IMG/VR virus record: IMGVR_UViG_3300033076_001027
Span: 1 to 44,255 of that record
DNA length: 44,255 nt
DNA from: a virus
Taxonomy: Duplodnaviria; Caudoviricetes
Strand: one strand, 5' to 3'
Within the stretch, counting starts at the first letter, position 1; each line of letters begins with the position of its first letter. Both the position numbers and the translations under genes were made by a program. Shown piece by piece: positions 1,906-41,408 of this stretch. A model generated the notes under the pieces. The model searched no databases. It was not told the DNA's origin and was given only the letters and a program-made list of their open reading frames with translations.

Positions 1906-4041
1906 ATGGAAAACAACGAACCCATCGAGACTGACAAATACGACGCGGACGACGCCACCGAGGGCGAGGTCCGGCCGGCCGGCATCAAGCGCAAGCCGGA
2001 CGAGAACCTCCGGGCGTCAAGACGCGCGCTGGTGCGCGAATGGACGGACAAGGTGATCCGCGCGAAGAAGCACTGGGAGCTCGCGCATCGCCGGATGAAG
2101 GAGGACAGCGATTTCTACATGGGCAAGCAGTGGCCCTTCCACCGCGGCGACGACGACCGCTATGTGGCGAACCTGGCGCAGCGGCATGTGCAGACGCGCG
2201 TGGCGGCTCTTTACGCGAAGAACCCGAAGGCGATCGCGAAGCGCCGGCGCGTGATGGATTTCCAGATCTGGGAAGGCAACGCCAGCGAGCTGATGATGGC
2301 GAAGACCGCCAACGACCAGTCGCTGATGATGCTCGGCTCGCCGAACCCGTCGTCGATGGCCCTCATGCAGGATGTGCAGCAGGGTTTCGAGAAGCGCCGG
2401 AAGCTGGACAAGGTCGCCGAGACCCTGGAGATCGTGTTCAAGCACACCCTGGAGCACCAGAATTTCAAGATCCAGATGAAGCAGCTTGTCCGGCGCGTGT
2501 GCGTGACCGGCGTCGGGTTCGTCAAGATCGGCTATCACCGCGTGATGGGCAACCGCCCGGAGGATGTCGAGAAGATCACCGACATCACCGAGCAGCTGCG
2601 CGTGCTTGAGCGGCTGATGCTGGACCAGCAGGACGGCAAGTTCGACGAAAACCAGGCCAAGGCCGAACAGCTCCGGCTGCTGCTGAAGGAGCTCCAGGAA
2701 TCGCAGCAGGAAGGCGAGACGATCACCGACGAGGGCTTGGTGTTCGACTTCCCGCAGTCGCAGAACATCATCGTGGACACGCGCTGCCGCCAGCTCCAGG
2801 GATTCATCGGGGCCGAGTGGGTCGCCCAGGAATTCCTGCTGACTTGCAACGAGGTCAAGGAGGTCTACGGCGTGGACCTCGGCACGACCTACACGCGCCA
2901 GGAGCACAAGATCACGGAGTCCGGCCTGTCCGAGAAGACGAGCGACGACCTGGCCCGGATCTGGGAGGTCTACAACAAGCGCGACGGCCTCAAGTATGTG
3001 ATCGCCGACGGCTATCCGGACTTCCTGGTCGAGCCCAGCTGCCCGGACATCAAGCTGCGCCGGTTCTGGCCGTTCTTCTGCCTCCTGTTCAACGAGGTCG
3101 AGAACGACCGGGACATCTACCCGCCGTCCGATGTCCGGCTGCTGAAGCCGATTCAGATGGAATACAACCTCGCGCGCCAGCGTCTCCGCGAGCACCGCAA
3201 CGCCAACCGGCCGCTGTATGTGACGCCGATCGGCATGCTGTCCGAAAACGATGTGAAGAAGCTGATGGACCGGCAGCCCAACGAGGTGATCCAGCTGAAC
3301 AGCCTCCAGCCGGGCCAGGCGGTCAACCAGGTGATCCAGCCGATGCAGCCGATCCCGATCGACCCGCAGCTGTACGACACCTCGATGTTCATGGAGGACA
3401 TGTTCCGCGTCGTCGGCAGCCAGGAAGCGAACCTGGGCGGCGGCACCGGCAACACGGCGACCGAGGTCTCGGTGGCCGAATCCAGCCGCATGAGCTCCCT
3501 GGGCTCGCATGTGGACGACCTGGACGAATTCCTGTCCGAGATCGCCAAGGCCGCCAGCCAGGTGCTTCTGACCCTCATGGACCCCATGACCGCCAGCAAG
3601 ATTGCCGGCCCTGGTGCATCCTGGCCGACCCTTTCTGCCCAGGAGATCGCCGATGAGCTGTACCTGGAGATCGAGGCCGGAAGCTCCGGTCGCCCGAACA
3701 AGGCCACGGAAATCGGCAACTTTGAGCGCCTGGCGCCGTTGCTGATCCAGATCCCTGGCATCGACCCCACCTGGCTTGCCAAGGAGGCCATCAAGCGCAT
3801 GGACGACGGCATCGACCTCACCGAGGCGGTCAAGGCTGCGATCCCGTCGATCGTGCAGCAGAACGCCCAGAAGCAGATGGGCGAGGCAGCCATGGCTGGC
3901 GGCCCGGCGGCCCAGGGCGGGGCTCCGATGCCTGGTCCCGAGGCGGCTGCGCCTGGTGCTCCGGTAGGCGCCGGCGGCACTCCTGGGGTCCCGAACATGC
4001 CCCAGGCCAAGACATACGGGCTACCGACGGCCCCCCAATAA
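1906..4041 (+). CDS. Portal protein (podovirus type)
   Basis: 711 aa directly after TerL; DFYMGKQW near the N-terminus, TATEV motif, low-complexity Q/P/A/G C-terminal tail. Confidence 0.88.
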   Translation: MENNEPIETDKYDADDATEGEVRPAGIKRKPDENLRASRRALVREWTDKVIRAKKHWELAHRRMKEDSDFYMGKQWPFHRGDDDRYVANLAQRHVQTRVAALYAKNPKAIAKRRRVMDFQIWEGNASELMMAKTANDQSLMMLGSPNPSSMALMQDVQQGFEKRRKLDKVAETLEIVFKHTLEHQNFKIQMKQLVRRVCVTGVGFVKIGYHRVMGNRPEDVEKITDITEQLRVLERLMLDQQDGKFDENQAKAEQLRLLLKELQESQQEGETITDEGLVFDFPQSQNIIVDTRCRQLQGFIGAEWVAQEFLLTCNEVKEVYGVDLGTTYTRQEHKITESGLSEKTSDDLARIWEVYNKRDGLKYVIADGYPDFLVEPSCPDIKLRRFWPFFCLLFNEVENDRDIYPPSDVRLLKPIQMEYNLARQRLREHRNANRPLYVTPIGMLSENDVKKLMDRQPNEVIQLNSLQPGQAVNQVIQPMQPIPIDPQLYDTSMFMEDMFRVVGSQEANLGGGTGNTATEVSVAESSRMSSLGSHVDDLDEFLSEIAKAASQVLLTLMDPMTASKIAGPGASWPTLSAQEIADELYLEIEAGSSGRPNKATEIGNFERLAPLLIQIPGIDPTWLAKEAIKRMDDGIDLTEAVKAAIPSIVQQNAQKQMGEAAMAGGPAAQGGAPMPGPEAAAPGAPVGAGGTPGVPNMPQAKTYGLPTAPQ

Positions 4042-36294: not shown

Positions 36295-36497
36295 GCGAAC
36301 CCAACGAAAGAAAACTGATCTCCCAGCTGGCCGACAAGGACATGCTGATCCGGCGCCTGATCGAGGCCGGCAACAACATCGCGCTGCCCATCCAGGACGG
36401 CTGCGCCCACGACGAGGACGGCTGCGACCAATGTCACGCCGCCGTGGCGATCTGGGATCGCCTGGTCCGGGAGGCCACGCGCCATGGCAACAAGTGA
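36291..36497 (+). CDS. Small hypothetical protein with Cys/His cluster
   Basis: CAHDEDGCDQCH; ATGA-coupled. Confidence 0.65.
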   Translation: MSEPNERKLISQLADKDMLIRRLIEAGNNIALPIQDGCAHDEDGCDQCHAAVAIWDRLVREATRHGNK

Positions 36498-36618
36498 CGA
36501 GATCCAGGCCCTGGCTAAGGAGCTTGCGCAGCTCCTGGTGCACACGGCTCCAGGCCAATGGAACGCTGCGCGGATCCTGGCGATCGCGCGCCGGCTGCAC
36601 GAGCTGACCGGTGGCTAA
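36484..36618 (+). CDS. 44-aa helical protein (not in the ORF track)
   Basis: MATSDEIQALAKELAQLLVHTAPGQWNAARILAIARRLHELTGG; overlaps the upstream gene end; phage-like codons. Confidence 0.55.
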   Translation: MATSDEIQALAKELAQLLVHTAPGQWNAARILAIARRLHELTGG

Positions 36619-36759
36619 GGGATCGGAGGCGTCCTACTAGCGGGGCTACCGCCTGGCCGGCGTCCTCCGGCCTCCCTACCACCGGCCTTTCGGCCGACCC
36701 AGGCTGCTATGCGCCTGGGTATGATCAGAAACATGGGCGTGACCCCTAAAAAGGCACGC

Positions 36760-36820
36760 CCAAAACTTTTTTGAAATAAGCGCAAAATGCACTTGCATGA
36801 TCTGATAACACGGACATGTT
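36760..36820 (+). promoter_or_regulatory. Putative sigma70-type early promoter with UP element
   Basis: A/T tracts (AAAACTTTTTTGAAATAA), then TTGCAT (36793-36798), 16 nt, CATGTT (36815-36820). Confidence 0.5.
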
Positions 36821-36825
36821 CCCAT

Positions 36826-37645
36826 CTGTCGCCAGTACGGGACACGCTACCGACCGCGTCATGCGGGAGCTCAGCGGATCCTCGAAAACGGCCCGTTTTT
36901 TGACAGTCCAACCAAACCGACAAGACCTGGCATAGGCCAGGCACACACCCAGCTGGGCAACCAGCTGGGCCACTTTACCGGCCCCGTACGGGGCCACCAA
37001 CCGCATGAAACCGACACAACCGACTCCCTCAAGAGTCCGGGCCGGTAGCACCAGCTCATGGTAGCGACCCGGCCCGTCATGCGGATCCTTTGGCCCTGGG
37101 AATTCTCGGGGCCCGCATCGGTGCGATACTTACCAGGCCTAGGCCTCGGCTGGGGTCGCATGGGTGCGTCACTTTCCTCCCCCGCCGGAGTCTAACTGCG
37201 CGGACGGCAGCGCCCGTTCAACGCTATCTGAGGATCATGCCCCCGCGCTCTGCAACGGGGCCAATGCTTAACCAGGCTCCGGACCGGCTACTCCCACGGG
37301 ACATGCCGGACGCCATGGAAAACGCACATGCAGCGTGACCCATACCTGGCCCCAGATCACCTTTACGCCGGCTCCTGCCGGCTTGACTAGCCGGATACTG
37401 AGACCGCCCGCGCCCACTACATTTCCGGGTACACGGCGGTTTCTACGAACCGGCAGTCTTCACTTTCCGGCATAACGATCCTTCATGGATGGGACGCCGG
37501 CCAGAAAACAATGACCTGGAAGCCGTTCAGCCGTAAGGCTGGAGGACGACAAGACAGGGCGCCGGTGGCAACCGGCCCAGAAACACCGCGGATCAGTAAT
37601 ACAGGCTGTATCCACCGGCGCGCGCCGTCATCTCCGCGCCGGCTT
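36826..37645 (+). ncRNA. Candidate large structured ncRNA, or an array of structured RNAs
   Basis: No convincing ORF; more than 15 hairpins including GNRA-capped ones, plus nested long-range helices; ends just before tRNA-Glu. Confidence 0.6.
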
Positions 37646-37651
37646 AATTTA

Positions 37652-37726
37652 GCTCCCATCGTCTAGCGGTTAGGACACGCGGTTTTCATCCGCGCGACCG
37701 GGGTTCGATTCCCCGTGGGAGCGCCA
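37652..37726 (+). tRNA. tRNA-Glu (TTC)
   Basis: GCTCCCA/TGGGAGC acceptor, D arm GTCT..GGAC, anticodon arm CGCGG-TTTTCAT-CCGCG, GGTTCGATTCC, encoded CCA. Confidence 0.96.
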
Positions 37727-37736
37727 CTTTCTACTG

Positions 37737-38153
37737 ATGCGTAAGCAGCAGCCGACCCCCGTGGACACGGGCACACAGTCCACCGAAGCCGGCGCGGTTC
37801 AAGCCGCCGGCAAGCCGACCAAGTCCAAGTTTCACCGGGGCAAGGATGTCACCTTCAAGGTGAACACCAAGCTCACGACGAACCTCATCAACCTCGGTCA
37901 CATCGCGTACCAGGCCCTCGAAAAGCCTGGGCAGGACATCGACCTGGCGGCGTGCAAACGCCTCTGGATCTCCAATGTCCGATCGCTCATCGGCATCCGG
38001 CTCGCGGCCGGTGCGCGCGTCCCGGACATCAAGGGCGTGGATGTCGTCGCCTTCTACGGCGTCGAGGGCGCCAAGCCCAGCAAGACCGAGGCCGAGATCA
38101 AGCGACTGGAAGCCAAGCTCGCCAAGCTGAAGGCCAAGGTCGGCAAGAAGTGA
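37737..38153 (+). CDS. Basic hypothetical (putative early) protein
   Basis: Strong codon bias; K-rich coiled-coil C-terminus. Confidence 0.65.
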   Translation: MRKQQPTPVDTGTQSTEAGAVQAAGKPTKSKFHRGKDVTFKVNTKLTTNLINLGHIAYQALEKPGQDIDLAACKRLWISNVRSLIGIRLAAGARVPDIKGVDVVAFYGVEGAKPSKTEAEIKRLEAKLAKLKAKVGKK

Positions 38154-38157
38154 ACCC

Positions 38158-38191
38158 ACGGGGCGCTCATCCAAAACGATGGGCGCCCCGT
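38158..38191 (+). promoter_or_regulatory. 14-bp intergenic hairpin (possible processing site)
   Basis: ACGGGGCGCTCATC-CAAAAC-GATGGGCGCCCCGT, with no adjacent U tract. Confidence 0.55.
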
Positions 38192-38225
38192 CCTATTTAT
38201 GAGGGGCGATCCCTTTTTCCCAACC

Positions 38226-38627
38226 ATGAAACACAACCAACCCGGCAAGTGGACCGCGAGCGAGCTCGCCGACCATGCTGCCAAACAGGTTCCGGCTTAC
38301 CTTGACAAGCCGACCGAACGCCTGGTGCGGTATTACACCACGCGACAGATCCTGGACAAGCCCACCCGGACCGACGCCGACAAGCGCCGGGCCGTCTACG
38401 GCGAGCGCCAACTGTACCAGCTCCTGCTGGCCCTCGTGTTCAACTACGCGGGCCCGGGCGCCATCGAGGCCCACAGTCGCGGATACTTCCGCTTCCCCAC
38501 GACCTCGCAGACCGGTACGGAGCACGCGCTCCGGGATCTGTACCTCAATGCCATCGGGCCCGGCGGCATCGCCAACAGCGCTTACACGCTCAAGGTGAAG
38601 ACCAAGGTGAAGGGGGGTTCCAAGTGA
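38226..38627 (+). CDS. MerR-family HTH protein
   Basis: WTASELA...ERLVRYYTTRQILDKP...RAVYGERQLYQL is the MerR winged-helix pattern. Confidence 0.75.
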   Translation: MKHNQPGKWTASELADHAAKQVPAYLDKPTERLVRYYTTRQILDKPTRTDADKRRAVYGERQLYQLLLALVFNYAGPGAIEAHSRGYFRFPTTSQTGTEHALRDLYLNAIGPGGIANSAYTLKVKTKVKGGSK

Positions 38628-39076
38628 GCACCCCGGAAACCGAGCCCCTGGAGCCCAAGGTGCTGGAGGCCTTCTCCTATGTCATCGTGACCGCCGTCGA
38701 AGGCGGTTCGTACACCCGGGACGATTACGCGCAGTGGACGCAGTACGCGCACGCCGACGGACCCTTTGGGTTCCAAGCCGCCGTCACTGTCTACCCCAAC
38801 CGGGTCGGCAAGTACGACACCGACGAGAAGCCGGACCCCATCCGCGTCACCGCGGACTGGTTCGCCCGGCGCATCGTCCAGGGCGTCTTGTCCAAGATCG
38901 GCGAGCGGTATCAGATCCTCGGCATCCCGAAGACGGGCCCGGAGATCCCGCCGGCGCTGTTCGACAAGGCCACCCGGCTGATCCTCGGCGACGAGGATGT
39001 CGCCGGTGAGATCGATGTCATCGACGCCGGCGCGCTGCTGCAAGCGGCGGTCTACGGCAAGGTCATCTACGGATAA
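38624..39076 (+). CDS. Hypothetical protein
   Basis: GTGA overlap; C-terminus IDAGALLQAAVYGKVIYG. Confidence 0.7.
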   Translation: MSTPETEPLEPKVLEAFSYVIVTAVEGGSYTRDDYAQWTQYAHADGPFGFQAAVTVYPNRVGKYDTDEKPDPIRVTADWFARRIVQGVLSKIGERYQILGIPKTGPEIPPALFDKATRLILGDEDVAGEIDVIDAGALLQAAVYGKVIYG

Positions 39077-39079
39077 CAA

Positions 39080-39138
39080 GGGCGAAACGCACCGGCATTG
39101 GCCGGGCGTCCCGGCGTCTCGCGCCGGCTGACGAGCCC
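39080..39138 (+). ncRNA. Type II hammerhead ribozyme
   Basis: GGGC-GAAA-CGC(A)CCGGC-ATTG-GCCGG-GCG-TC^-CCGGCG-TCTCG-CGCCGG-CTGACGA-GCCC. All core nucleotides and three stems are present; predicted cleavage after C39110. Confidence 0.92.
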
Positions 39139-39175
39139 CGTCAGTTAATCCAAACCAACCAAAAACACCGAAAAC

Positions 39176-39595
39176 ATGATCAAAAACCTCAACCCCGATG
39201 TCCTCAAGGCCTTGGCCCTGGACATCGACACCGCGCTCAAGGCCGTCGCCGAGAAGCATGGTCTCAGCATCACGACGGGCAACAGTCGCTACGACGACCA
39301 GAGCGCCGAGATGAAGCTGAAGATCTGCACCCTCGACGACACCGGCGCCAAGCACACCCGCGAGCGCAACGCGCTCAACACCTGGTCCGAGCACCTTCTG
39401 AACGGGCTGCAGTACGGCGACAAGGTCACGCTGCTCACCCGCAAGGGCAAGCTGCAGTACTCCGTCGCCGGCTATGTCAGCCGGTCGGGCAAGCTGCAGA
39501 TGACCGGCCCGGACCAGAAGACCTGGCTGTTCGACGCAGCCGCGGTCGTGGGCCAGATCAAGGACGGCAAGGCGTCCGTGTCCAAAGCCTCCTAA
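39176..39595 (+). CDS. Hypothetical protein
   Basis: A/C-rich leader, strong codon bias. Confidence 0.75.
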   Translation: MIKNLNPDVLKALALDIDTALKAVAEKHGLSITTGNSRYDDQSAEMKLKICTLDDTGAKHTRERNALNTWSEHLLNGLQYGDKVTLLTRKGKLQYSVAGYVSRSGKLQMTGPDQKTWLFDAAAVVGQIKDGKASVSKAS

Positions 39596-39596
39596 C

Positions 39597-40025
39597 ATGG
39601 GCCTCGACATGTACGCGCTCACCTGTGACCCGGACAAGGTCACGCGCACCGAGCTGGGGGTGGATCAACTCCCGTCGTGGCACCCGGACAGCCCGGATGA
39701 CGCGACCATGATCCACACCTGGCGCAAGCACCCGGATCTCCACCAGTGGATGACCGACCTGTACTTCCGCAAGGAAGGCCTGGAAGGGGACATCACCCGG
39801 GCCGAGATGGGTCCCGCCTTCAACGCCGGCCAATTCGTGCGCCTCACGGAGCACGATCTGGATCAGCTGGAGGCTGCCGTCGAAGCCGGCGCGCTGCCCA
39901 AGGCGTCCGGATTCTTCTGGGGCGTCAGCAGCCCGGAAGACAAAGCGGACGACCTGGCCTTCATCAAGAAAGCCCGCAAGGCCATCAAGGCCGGCAAGGT
40001 CGTCTTCTATTCGTCCTGGTGGTGA
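39597..40025 (+). CDS. Conserved phage/mobile-element hypothetical (MGLDMY...WRKHP.LH.WM...GFF type)
   Basis: Recognisable motif set ending YSSWW; function unknown. Confidence 0.8.
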   Translation: MGLDMYALTCDPDKVTRTELGVDQLPSWHPDSPDDATMIHTWRKHPDLHQWMTDLYFRKEGLEGDITRAEMGPAFNAGQFVRLTEHDLDQLEAAVEAGALPKASGFFWGVSSPEDKADDLAFIKKARKAIKAGKVVFYSSWW

Positions 40026-40045
40026 TCGGTTTGGTTGGCTGTCTC

Positions 40046-40075
40046 AAGGCTCCGGCTCACGCCGGGGCCTTTTTT
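40046..40075 (+). terminator. Rho-independent terminator
   Basis: AAGGCTCCGGC-TCAC-GCCGGGGCCTT followed by a T run. Confidence 0.88.
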
Positions 40076-40120
40076 GTGCCTTGCGCCGATCGGCGCCGGC
40101 AGCACGATCAGATCCACGAT

Positions 40121-40159
40121 GGCCCTCCCCGCTGCTGCAAAGCAAGGGAGGGTCTTTTT
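40121..40159 (+). terminator. Second, tandem terminator
   Basis: GGCCCTCCC...TGCT-GCAA-AGCA...GGGAGGGTC followed by TTTTT. Confidence 0.7.
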
Positions 40160-40286
40160 GTGCCCGCTGCTGTCAGCACATGATCGCGAAATCCAGCCTT
40201 TCCGGTTCGGAAAACCCTCCAGGGTTTACCGAACGCACATAAAAGGCCCGATCTCGTGCGCATACGCTGACACCGGCCGGCGCCGA

Positions 40287-40586
40287 TCAGTCGCCCTTGC
40301 GCCAGATCTTCCGGATGTCGTCCAGCTCAGCCCGGACCTTGGCCCGGTATCGGCGCATCGCCAGGGCCTTCTGCGCCCGTCGATCCGCGCAGCGGACCCG
40401 GCTCTCGTTTACCTGGCACCGATGCGCGTCCAGCCTGTCCTGGTACCAGGCAAACATGGATCCGACCGGCCCGGCCGGCAGCTTCAGCCGCCGGATCACG
40501 CGCGGCACAGATCCCACCGGATCGAGAAATTCGCTGTTTTCGCCCGTTATTTTGAGGAAAGTTCCTCGTTTTTGGATGTGGCCCAT
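40287..40586 (-). CDS. Possible small basic protein
   Basis: MGHIQKRG...ALAMRRYRAKVRAELDDIRKIWRKGD; start uncertain, weak support. Confidence 0.35.
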   Translation of the reverse strand: MGHIQKRGTFLKITGENSEFLDPVGSVPRVIRRLKLPAGPVGSMFAWYQDRLDAHRCQVNESRVRCADRRAQKALAMRRYRAKVRAELDDIRKIWRKGD

Positions 40587-40973
40587 TTTCCTAGGGTTTT
40601 CGGAAAATCCCGGATAGGCAAGCCCATCAGCTGACAGTCGCGTAGCGTTTTGCCTATCAGAACATGCCTTCCACACGCGGATTCTACGCGGCGATCCATG
40701 GATCTGATCACCAGGCATTTACGACGGCCCTGGCTGATAGGCAAAGCTGCTAGGCAGTGAAAATGTAGATCTTTGCCTCTAACGAGAGGAAAGTTTTCCT
40801 TTCCCTTCTACGCATGAAACCCCTGCAAACATTAGGGGAAAGTGAGTCTCCCTACGGGATAGGTTAAGACGCCCTAACGGGCTGTCGTTAACCCCCTTAG
40901 GCCTAAAGGCCAGGGGGCACGACCCGTTAACTCTATTCTCGCGTAGGCCGGACCCCTTCCTCACATCAGATCC

Positions 40974-41408
40974 ATGAAAGTCATCGTGATCGTCCGGGGC
41001 CACCCTAGACCCCAACCCAGGCCCAGGTTCATCAAAGGACGCGCCGTCAGCTGCGCCGATCCCCTCGCCGCAGCCTGGAAGGCCAAGATCAAGGCTGCCG
41101 TCTCCCAGATCCCCCTGGAGCTGCCCAAAGGCCCCCTTAGCTGCAGCATGTGGTTCCGCATGCCCACCAAGGACCAGGCCAGGGCCGACAAGCCCCACAC
41201 CCAGGTCCCGGACCTGGACAACCTGGCAAAGCTCGTCCTGGACGCGATCCAGGACACCGGGCTCCTGGTCAATGACTCCCAGGTCGCCAGGCTCAACCTG
41301 GATAAAACCTGGTCATCCCTGGATCAGTCCGGTGTCCTGGTTGAGCTCGAAAGCTGGGAACCCTCAGATCAGCGCGCAGAGCTGCCAAAGCCGGGCTGGC
41401 TGCAGTGA
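40974..41408 (+). CDS. rusA: RusA-family Holliday junction resolvase
   Basis: GHPRPQPRPRF, PDLDNLAKLVLDA, NDSQV catalytic pattern. Confidence 0.9.
   Translation: MKVIVIVRGHPRPQPRPRFIKGRAVSCADPLAAAWKAKIKAAVSQIPLELPKGPLSCSMWFRMPTKDQARADKPHTQVPDLDNLAKLVLDAIQDTGLLVNDSQVARLNLDKTWSSLDQSGVLVELESWEPSDQRAELPKPGWLQ

Follow-up and report, generated by a model that had tools for sequence, protein, structure and literature searches.

The window analysed here comprises all 44,255 nucleotides of a virus record (IMGVR_UViG_3300033076_001027) and represents a near-complete tailed phage, with terminase, portal, capsid and internal virion genes present along with genes for Sak4, a helicase, a Cas4-like protein, a primase, RusA and a tail fibre. 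Its closest cultured phages are distant (capsid protein identity 40% and 36%) and contain no hammerhead under a looser descriptor script, so that they provide neither a host nor a test system. A BLASTN search of the ribozyme element described below against cultured phages returned 26 short matches, all with an E-value of at least 0.7.

One tRNA and five small ORFs without assigned function form a + strand cluster between two non-coding gaps, a layout that resembles phage early regions. The ribozyme sits within this cluster, with the flanking ORFs and a terminator-like hairpin all on the same strand (Table 1). It begins three bases (CAA) after the stop codon of the upstream ORF (TAA, 39074-39076), exactly as a preliminary description of this DNA had reported.

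Table 1. Features of the ribozyme locus, in window coordinates
Feature	Position	Strand	Basis or remark
Upstream ORF, 150 aa, no assigned function	38624..39076	+	weak PHROG 2355 match, E 6e-4
A, predicted Hoogsteen partner of U39117	39079	+	directly 5' of stem II
Stem II 5' strand GGGC, open stem	39080..39083	+	descriptor match
Core GAAA (G12 A13 A14 A15.1)	39084..39087	+	Rfam alignment and descriptor
Stem III hairpin	39088..39108	+	3 bp, A bulge, 5 bp, 4-nt loop
GUC triplet, predicted cut 3' of C39110	39108..39110	+	hammerhead consensus alignment
Stem I hairpin, 6 bp (39111-39116/39122-39127), 5-nt loop from U39117	39111..39127	+	descriptor, folding
Core CUGACGA, N7 = C39132	39128..39134	+	Rfam alignment and descriptor
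Stem II 3' strand GCCC, loop of the competing hairpin	39135..39138	+	descriptor, folding
Anti-core tail	39139..39146	+	6 nt complementary to core 39128-39133, plus two possible G-U pairs
Leader, unstructured, A/C-rich	39147..39175	+	sequence; predicted single-stranded in the 3' product
Downstream ORF, 139 aa, no assigned function	39176..39595	+	gained or lost jointly with the ribozyme
Second downstream ORF, 142 aa, no assigned function	39597..40025	+	82-89% identity, 6 related contigs
Terminator-like hairpin and T run, end of gene cluster	40046..40077	+	11-pair stem (40046-40071), then T run

The 150-aa ORF upstream of the ribozyme shows 63-80% identity in relatives. Downstream, the two-gene unit postulated earlier is indeed present, as two ORFs followed by the terminator-like hairpin; the leader that precedes the first of them contains no Shine-Dalgarno motif. 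We could not assign the 139-aa protein to any family, with no Pfam or PHROG match at E 0.001, and none of its six homologues has an assigned function. Its single-sequence structure model (pLDDT 43.5) is too low in confidence for use. Its neighbours in the Atlas are hypothetical proteins of viruses, 15-28% of members having Y4mA_C, which is a lead only.

Other parts of the region also show signs of structure. The stretch upstream of the tRNA (36760-37095) is non-coding, 78-94% conserved across all six related contigs and without an Rfam match. It contains several hairpins, one of which (around 36949-36972) has changed in both arms in contigs L004 and L007, and a longer-range helix that pairs the region of 37001 with that of 37080; judging from the sequence, it is a candidate structured RNA or control region. 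The tRNA site differs among relatives, with no tRNA in the fetched flank, two tRNA-Glu (L004, L007) or three tRNA-Asp (L006). Between a 138-aa and a 142-aa ORF, a 14-pair hairpin at 38158-38208 overlaps a terminator-like site, and this upstream 142-aa ORF (38199-38627) has a faint match to a MerR-type helix-turn-helix (E 0.08, under the cut-off). The cluster is followed by a second gap (40080-40970), some 0.9 kb long, in which no gene is convincing; it holds further hairpin-plus-T sites, is partly conserved in relatives (70-82%) and has no Rfam match. The flanking non-coding gaps yielded no Rfam RNA besides the tRNA, and a scan for sigma-70-like promoters over 36400-41100 returned no site.

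Anatomy and context of the hammerhead

A complete type II hammerhead had been claimed at 39080-39138, and every coordinate of that claim is borne out. The core is canonical at C3 U4 G5 A6 N7 G8 A9, at G12 A13 A14, at the A15.1-U16.1 pair and at H17, and is surrounded by three helices of 6, 4 and 3+5 bp (stems I, II and III), in which G10.1-C11.1 corresponds to G39135-C39083. Stem II is open and both stem I and stem III are closed, which is the type II topology. A descriptor search for the three topologies on both strands found 39080-39138 as the sole match in the window, and an independent pattern search of the whole record likewise gave one match; there is no antisense hammerhead and no further one elsewhere in the genome. 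Dinucleotide shuffles of the 44-kb window produced a match in 1 of 300 cases at stem lengths from 3/3/2 to 4/4/3; at the observed 6/4/3, none of the 300 matched. The Rfam check proposed in the preliminary description had a mixed outcome: Hammerhead_II is the best-scoring family and the whole core is aligned, but the score of 21.4 bits (E 0.054) falls below the gathering threshold of 37, so that the ribozyme is missed by a routine Rfam scan, which reports a tRNA-Glu (TTC, 37652-37723) as the only RNA of the window. On sequence grounds we conclude that 39080-39138 is a real type II hammerhead motif, of a known kind and in a known context, and that a transcript shared by the neighbouring genes is likely cut after C39110.

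A set of eight related loci, corresponding to six distinct contigs, allows this motif to be followed among close relatives. Four of the six contigs (L001, L002, L004, L007) carry both the ribozyme and the 139-aa gene, while L005 and L006 have neither and place the 142-aa gene three bases past the upstream stop. The ribozyme and its tail are 97% identical in L001, L002 and L007, where differences are confined to loop III, and 87% identical in L004, compared to 72-93% for the neighbouring genes. Covariation, which had been suggested as a check, is indeed seen in L004, as compensatory changes of two stem III pairs; stem I is identical across all four contigs. In L004 the upstream gene is also set apart from the ribozyme by about 260 extra bases (3226-3480) that look like a short ORF, and since this insert lies on the upstream side, the ribozyme goes with the downstream gene. 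Three further loci from a metagenome scan have flanks and ribozyme identical to those of relatives already in the set.

Both the topology and the canonical core are those of bacterial and prophage type II hammerheads (Perreault et al., 2011, PMC3088659; RF02276), which also lie between small phage ORFs and were proposed to cut transcripts into gene- or operon-length mRNAs. The idea of protein-free transcript processing put forward in the preliminary description is not new: the processing of long transcripts by phage type II hammerheads was proposed, and tested on prophage clusters, in 2011 (PMC3088659). In vivo evidence was also obtained for type II hammerheads near phage-like genes of Desulfovibrio vulgaris (Olzog et al., 2021, PMC8782182), and in the haloviruses HF1 and HF2 the 5' end of an early transcript was mapped within 3 nt of the cut site of HHphage (PMC3088659), which is a core variant, unlike the canonical core found here. 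The role and regulation of bacterial and phage hammerheads are treated as an open question in the relevant parts of two reviews (PMC6155905, PMC6765202). By itself, the present ribozyme is one more example of a known element. It may also be set beside T7 as an analogy only, given that a self-cleaving RNA is expected here and that T7 employs a protein enzyme that leaves 5'-phosphate ends. The T7 early mRNA is a polycistronic transcript cut between genes by RNase III.

RNA-library data consist of assembled contigs only, from diverged strains, and cover the gene cluster without resolving ends. In run X5, the upstream contig ends at 39083 and its successor begins at 39171, and another contig gap falls at the 38158-38191 hairpin. 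In run X6, the match of the upstream contig to the window is lost from 39084 onwards, where 28 differing letters point to another variant, and its successor begins at about 39127. X1 and X2 (probably DNA) and X7 and X9 (of a kind not on record) cross the site. With one clean study, low depth and the second gap at 38158-38191, we did not count the contig gaps as support for cleavage.

A pseudoknot-free subclass and its U-A positions

The published type II consensus includes a pseudoknot between loop I and the 3' tail, described for the majority of type II hammerheads and not for all (PMC3088659). The ribozyme studied here departs from it. At most two loop I/3' tail pairs are possible (longest Watson-Crick run 2, in L053 and L097, which have the same loop and tail), short of the at least four that define the pseudoknot form, and its tail pairs with the core instead.

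We found, however, that U39117, next to residue 1.6 of stem I, and A39079 occupy the positions of the conserved A-U Hoogsteen pair defined in the sTRSV and Schistosoma hammerheads (PMC2553840). Both bases are placed as in the type III hammerheads of the sTRSV class (Chi et al., 2008, PMC2553840). Unlike in that class, loop II is open and does not form a closed GNRA-type loop, so that the A is supplied by upstream RNA; the ribozyme is intergenic in a DNA phage and not part of a replicating circular RNA, and the pair is here predicted from position and conservation. Three of the four bases of the full U-Nm-Y-N/R-Nm-A motif are present, the exception being C39139 after stem II, which is not a purine.

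These positions recur well beyond the present phage. A scan fixing only the core and the U, run on 4 of the 64 parts of the collection (about 2500 stretches estimated), gave 159 distinct hammerheads, 141 of them with a 4-bp stem II, and among the latter the 5' A, which was not forced, is present in 140. Among short-stem-I ribozymes whose stem II has at least four pairs, and with neither base forced, U1.7 and the 5' A co-occurred in 103 of 104 and, in a second such set, in 36 of 41. We infer that the U39117-A39079 pair replaces the pseudoknot. Since Fig. S5 of PMC3088659 scores the U-Nm-Y-N/R-Nm-A contact for all three types, a U-A contact is not wholly new for type II and at most extends what is known.

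Twenty members drawn from the 98 tailed hammerheads described below were submitted to Rfam, and a single one passed the threshold, the other match obtained being a neighbouring ribozyme. Our scans thus suggest a large phage subclass, mostly missed by Rfam, that shares the U-A positions without the pseudoknot, and point to many phage ribozymes below the Rfam threshold.

A tail complementary to the catalytic core

Immediately after stem II, positions 39139-39144 are the exact reverse complement of the core at 39128-39133. The fold had earlier been taken as uncontested, and this view no longer holds, as the conserved tail competes with the core. In the minimum-energy fold, a tail hairpin takes the place of stem II (predicted pair probability 0.91-0.95 versus 0.02), and it lies 2.3 kcal/mol below the active secondary structure in nearest-neighbour energies. 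The switch to this hairpin is predicted once transcription has passed 39144, within 6 nt of the completion of stem II. The predicted 3' product consists of two adjacent hairpins (-19.9 kcal/mol) followed by the open A/C-rich leader. The tail hairpin is favoured over the active fold in all 91 of 91 family members, with a median difference of 2.6 kcal/mol (IQR 2.2-2.8). As the folding model favours the tail hairpin, activity depends on the energy of the core and of tertiary contacts, which the model omits.

Our reading of the literature, which is thin on subscription journals, gave no account of natural type II hammerheads with a core-complementary tail, and the text passages of PMC3088659 make no mention of one; the anti-core tail appears to be undescribed so far.

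The tail is found in many other hammerheads. A scan in which CRTCAG was forced 2-8 nt after the core covered 13 of the 64 parts, the estimated number of stretches being about 600. It returned 121 distinct matches. Full hammerheads make up 98 of them, with spacers of 2 nt (73), 3 nt (14), 4 nt (5) or 5-8 nt (6). A scrambled-tail control over the whole collection gave 97 stretches and 29 distinct hammerheads, mostly from one pseudoknot family. The tail and core-plus-U scans overlap in the parts of the collection that they cover, and their samples are dependent. Metagenome-assembled genomes of several phyla contain nine stretches with the tail pattern, eight of which pass the hammerhead test; none of these genomes is that of a cultured isolate.

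Five of the six tail pairs are fixed by the search pattern and uninformative on covariation, which thus rests on a single position, N7. Among the 98 hammerheads, N7 and its partner are U-A in 56, C-G in 38, U-G in 4 and C-A in none. When the 92 tailed copies with spacers of 2-4 nt were grouped by shared flanks and stems into 49 clusters, and one was retained per cluster, the counts became 33 U-A, 15 C-G, 1 U-G and 0 C-A (Fisher p 1e-11), that is, a Watson-Crick partner in 48 clusters and a wobble in one. Both N7 states are found at a GC content of 0.5-0.6 (22 and 18); they also coexist in four clusters and in a group of three paralogues on contig L116. When 56 of the 57 same-register copies were aligned without gaps, the remaining one extending beyond its locus, the counts were 29 U-A, 25 C-G, 2 U-G and no unpaired case.

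Sets that are not biased towards the tail comprise 311 distinct hammerheads, 183 of the U-A class and 128 other type II. A full 5-bp Watson-Crick helix including C3-N7 within 13 nt of the core is present in 43 of the 183. The corresponding figures are 1 and 0 of 183 for the two windows that follow and 5 of 183 when N7 is swapped; the other type II hammerheads contribute 1 case in 128. The helix has moved by one position into the 3' strand of stem II in 10 Watson-Crick cases, and N7 is still tracked there. We had first applied an energy test to the tails, which we abandoned for the helix count owing to its high background: a hairpin of -2 kcal/mol or below was found in 86 of 150 own tails, but also in 58 of 150 downstream controls and 76 of 150 N7-swapped ones. 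Extension of the hairpin into stem I is disfavoured (14 of 91 versus 27 in shuffles), a figure uncorrected for relatedness on which we place no weight.

Together, these counts indicate that about a quarter of the subclass is under selection to keep a second fold, with which the active one is incompatible. Roughly three quarters of it (140 of 183) lack the tail, which is thus dispensable. Its absence from the pseudoknot types may reflect the fact that their tail is already occupied.

What the tail may do

We lean towards a reading in which the hammerhead cuts the shared transcript and the tail slows this cut, then locks the downstream product so that the two halves part and do not rejoin; we consider it somewhat better than an even guess. 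The tail hairpin and the active fold would interconvert, and cleavage after C39110 in vivo would be slower but would still go on. A slowed yet active ribozyme is in fact expected, given that cleavage is irreversible and that neither core nor tertiary energy enters the folding model. Of the two products, the upstream RNA would have the stem III hairpin at its end, with a 2',3'-cyclic phosphate, and the two-gene RNA downstream would begin with a 5'-OH and two adjacent hairpins, with no unpaired 5' base, followed by the open leader. By locking, the downstream product would push off the upstream fragment, which four pairs and the tertiary A hold in place. The main job of the tail would then be that of a post-cleavage lock, and slowing its cost, as the pairing of tail and core must also compete before cleavage. 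The unique canonical match, the compensatory pairs, the association with the downstream gene and the N7 covariation would all count for this proposal. The need for a lock is weaker, however, if the equilibrium lies, as for sTRSV-type hammerheads, already toward the cleaved state (PMC2553840).

The preliminary description had also placed a hairpin at the new 5' end, and folding supports it: the stem I hairpin adjoins the predicted cut. Type II is the topology that leaves a closed hairpin on both products at the cut. That this end should resist decay is plausible but would depend on the host: RNase J1 degrades the product with the 5'-OH end left by glmS cleavage, whereas a 5' hairpin blocks this enzyme (PMC3328962).

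Below the lock we rank, in this order, an off state, a neutral palindrome and an inactive relic. The tail may be a built-in off state that adjusts cleavage and downstream expression for each gene separately, for instance if stem II is melted by a ribosome that terminates at the neighbouring stop, leaving the core open to capture by the tail; we regard this as possible but doubtful. It would agree with the lower energy of the competing fold and its narrow band (IQR 2.2-2.8 kcal/mol), although this band is partly a product of the search pattern, and with the dominance of the tail hairpin by the time transcription has gone 6 nt beyond stem II. Of the 82 tailed ribozymes for which an upstream ORF was found, 70 have an in-frame stop at most 6 nt from stem II, but stop proximity is equally common in untailed ones (35 of 42), and compact genomes account for it. 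Tailed and untailed copies are mixed in 10 of 27 multi-ribozyme loci, and a competing helix further downstream can prevent a ribozyme from assembling in vivo (PMC2817708); the analysis turned up no signal, ligand or antisense partner. In a wider form, to which we give a similarly tentative weight, the anti-core hairpin would be a subclass-wide, protein-free and ligand-free conformational control that determines, junction by junction, the extent to which a polycistronic phage transcript is cut, and it might be linked to translation termination at the adjacent stop codon.

We find it unlikely that the hammerhead is constitutive and its tail a neutral inherited inverted repeat, maintained by template-switch correction, or a protein-bound DNA palindrome. 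Correction of quasi-palindromes can keep both arms of a repeat matched to each other, and the tail is missing from most of the subclass, both of which are in its favour. The tail nevertheless persists despite full divergence of all three stems, and the varying spacer, together with the 10 helices shifted into stem II that still track N7, argues against a fixed operator. The scarcity of scrambled tails (97 stretches and 29 hammerheads, compared to about 600 estimated for the real tail and 98 of 121 sampled) also speaks against a neutral repeat, as do, weakly and in small numbers, the mismatches on the ribozyme strand (5 U-G, 0 C-A). More improbable still, in our opinion, is a copy that is effectively inactive, either trapped by its tail or lying on an untranscribed + strand, and serves as a structured spacer only. 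The stem II pair probability of 0.02 with the tail and the Rfam score under threshold would fit this reading; on the other side, the catalytic and U-A positions are all kept and stem III carries compensatory changes, which is hard to explain without selection for cleavage, and the orientation of the flanking ORFs and terminator is that of the + strand throughout.

The co-varying tail makes the distinction between a tuned or locked ribozyme and a constitutive one directly testable. It also points to a compact natural design, which may serve as a transcript insulator.

Further variation was noted in the course of the scans. Arrays of at least three type II hammerheads between small ORFs occur in L083, L286, L318, L345, L354 and L515, and some hammerhead arrays combine tailed and untailed copies. 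In L121, L138, L143 and L155 the anti-core tail can alternatively lengthen stem II to 8-9 pairs, and its bases thus have two possible partners. Finally, L283-L286 (at about 300-360) contain paralogous ribozymes with a wobble tail, GUUG after C7 and AUUG after U7, which still tracks N7.
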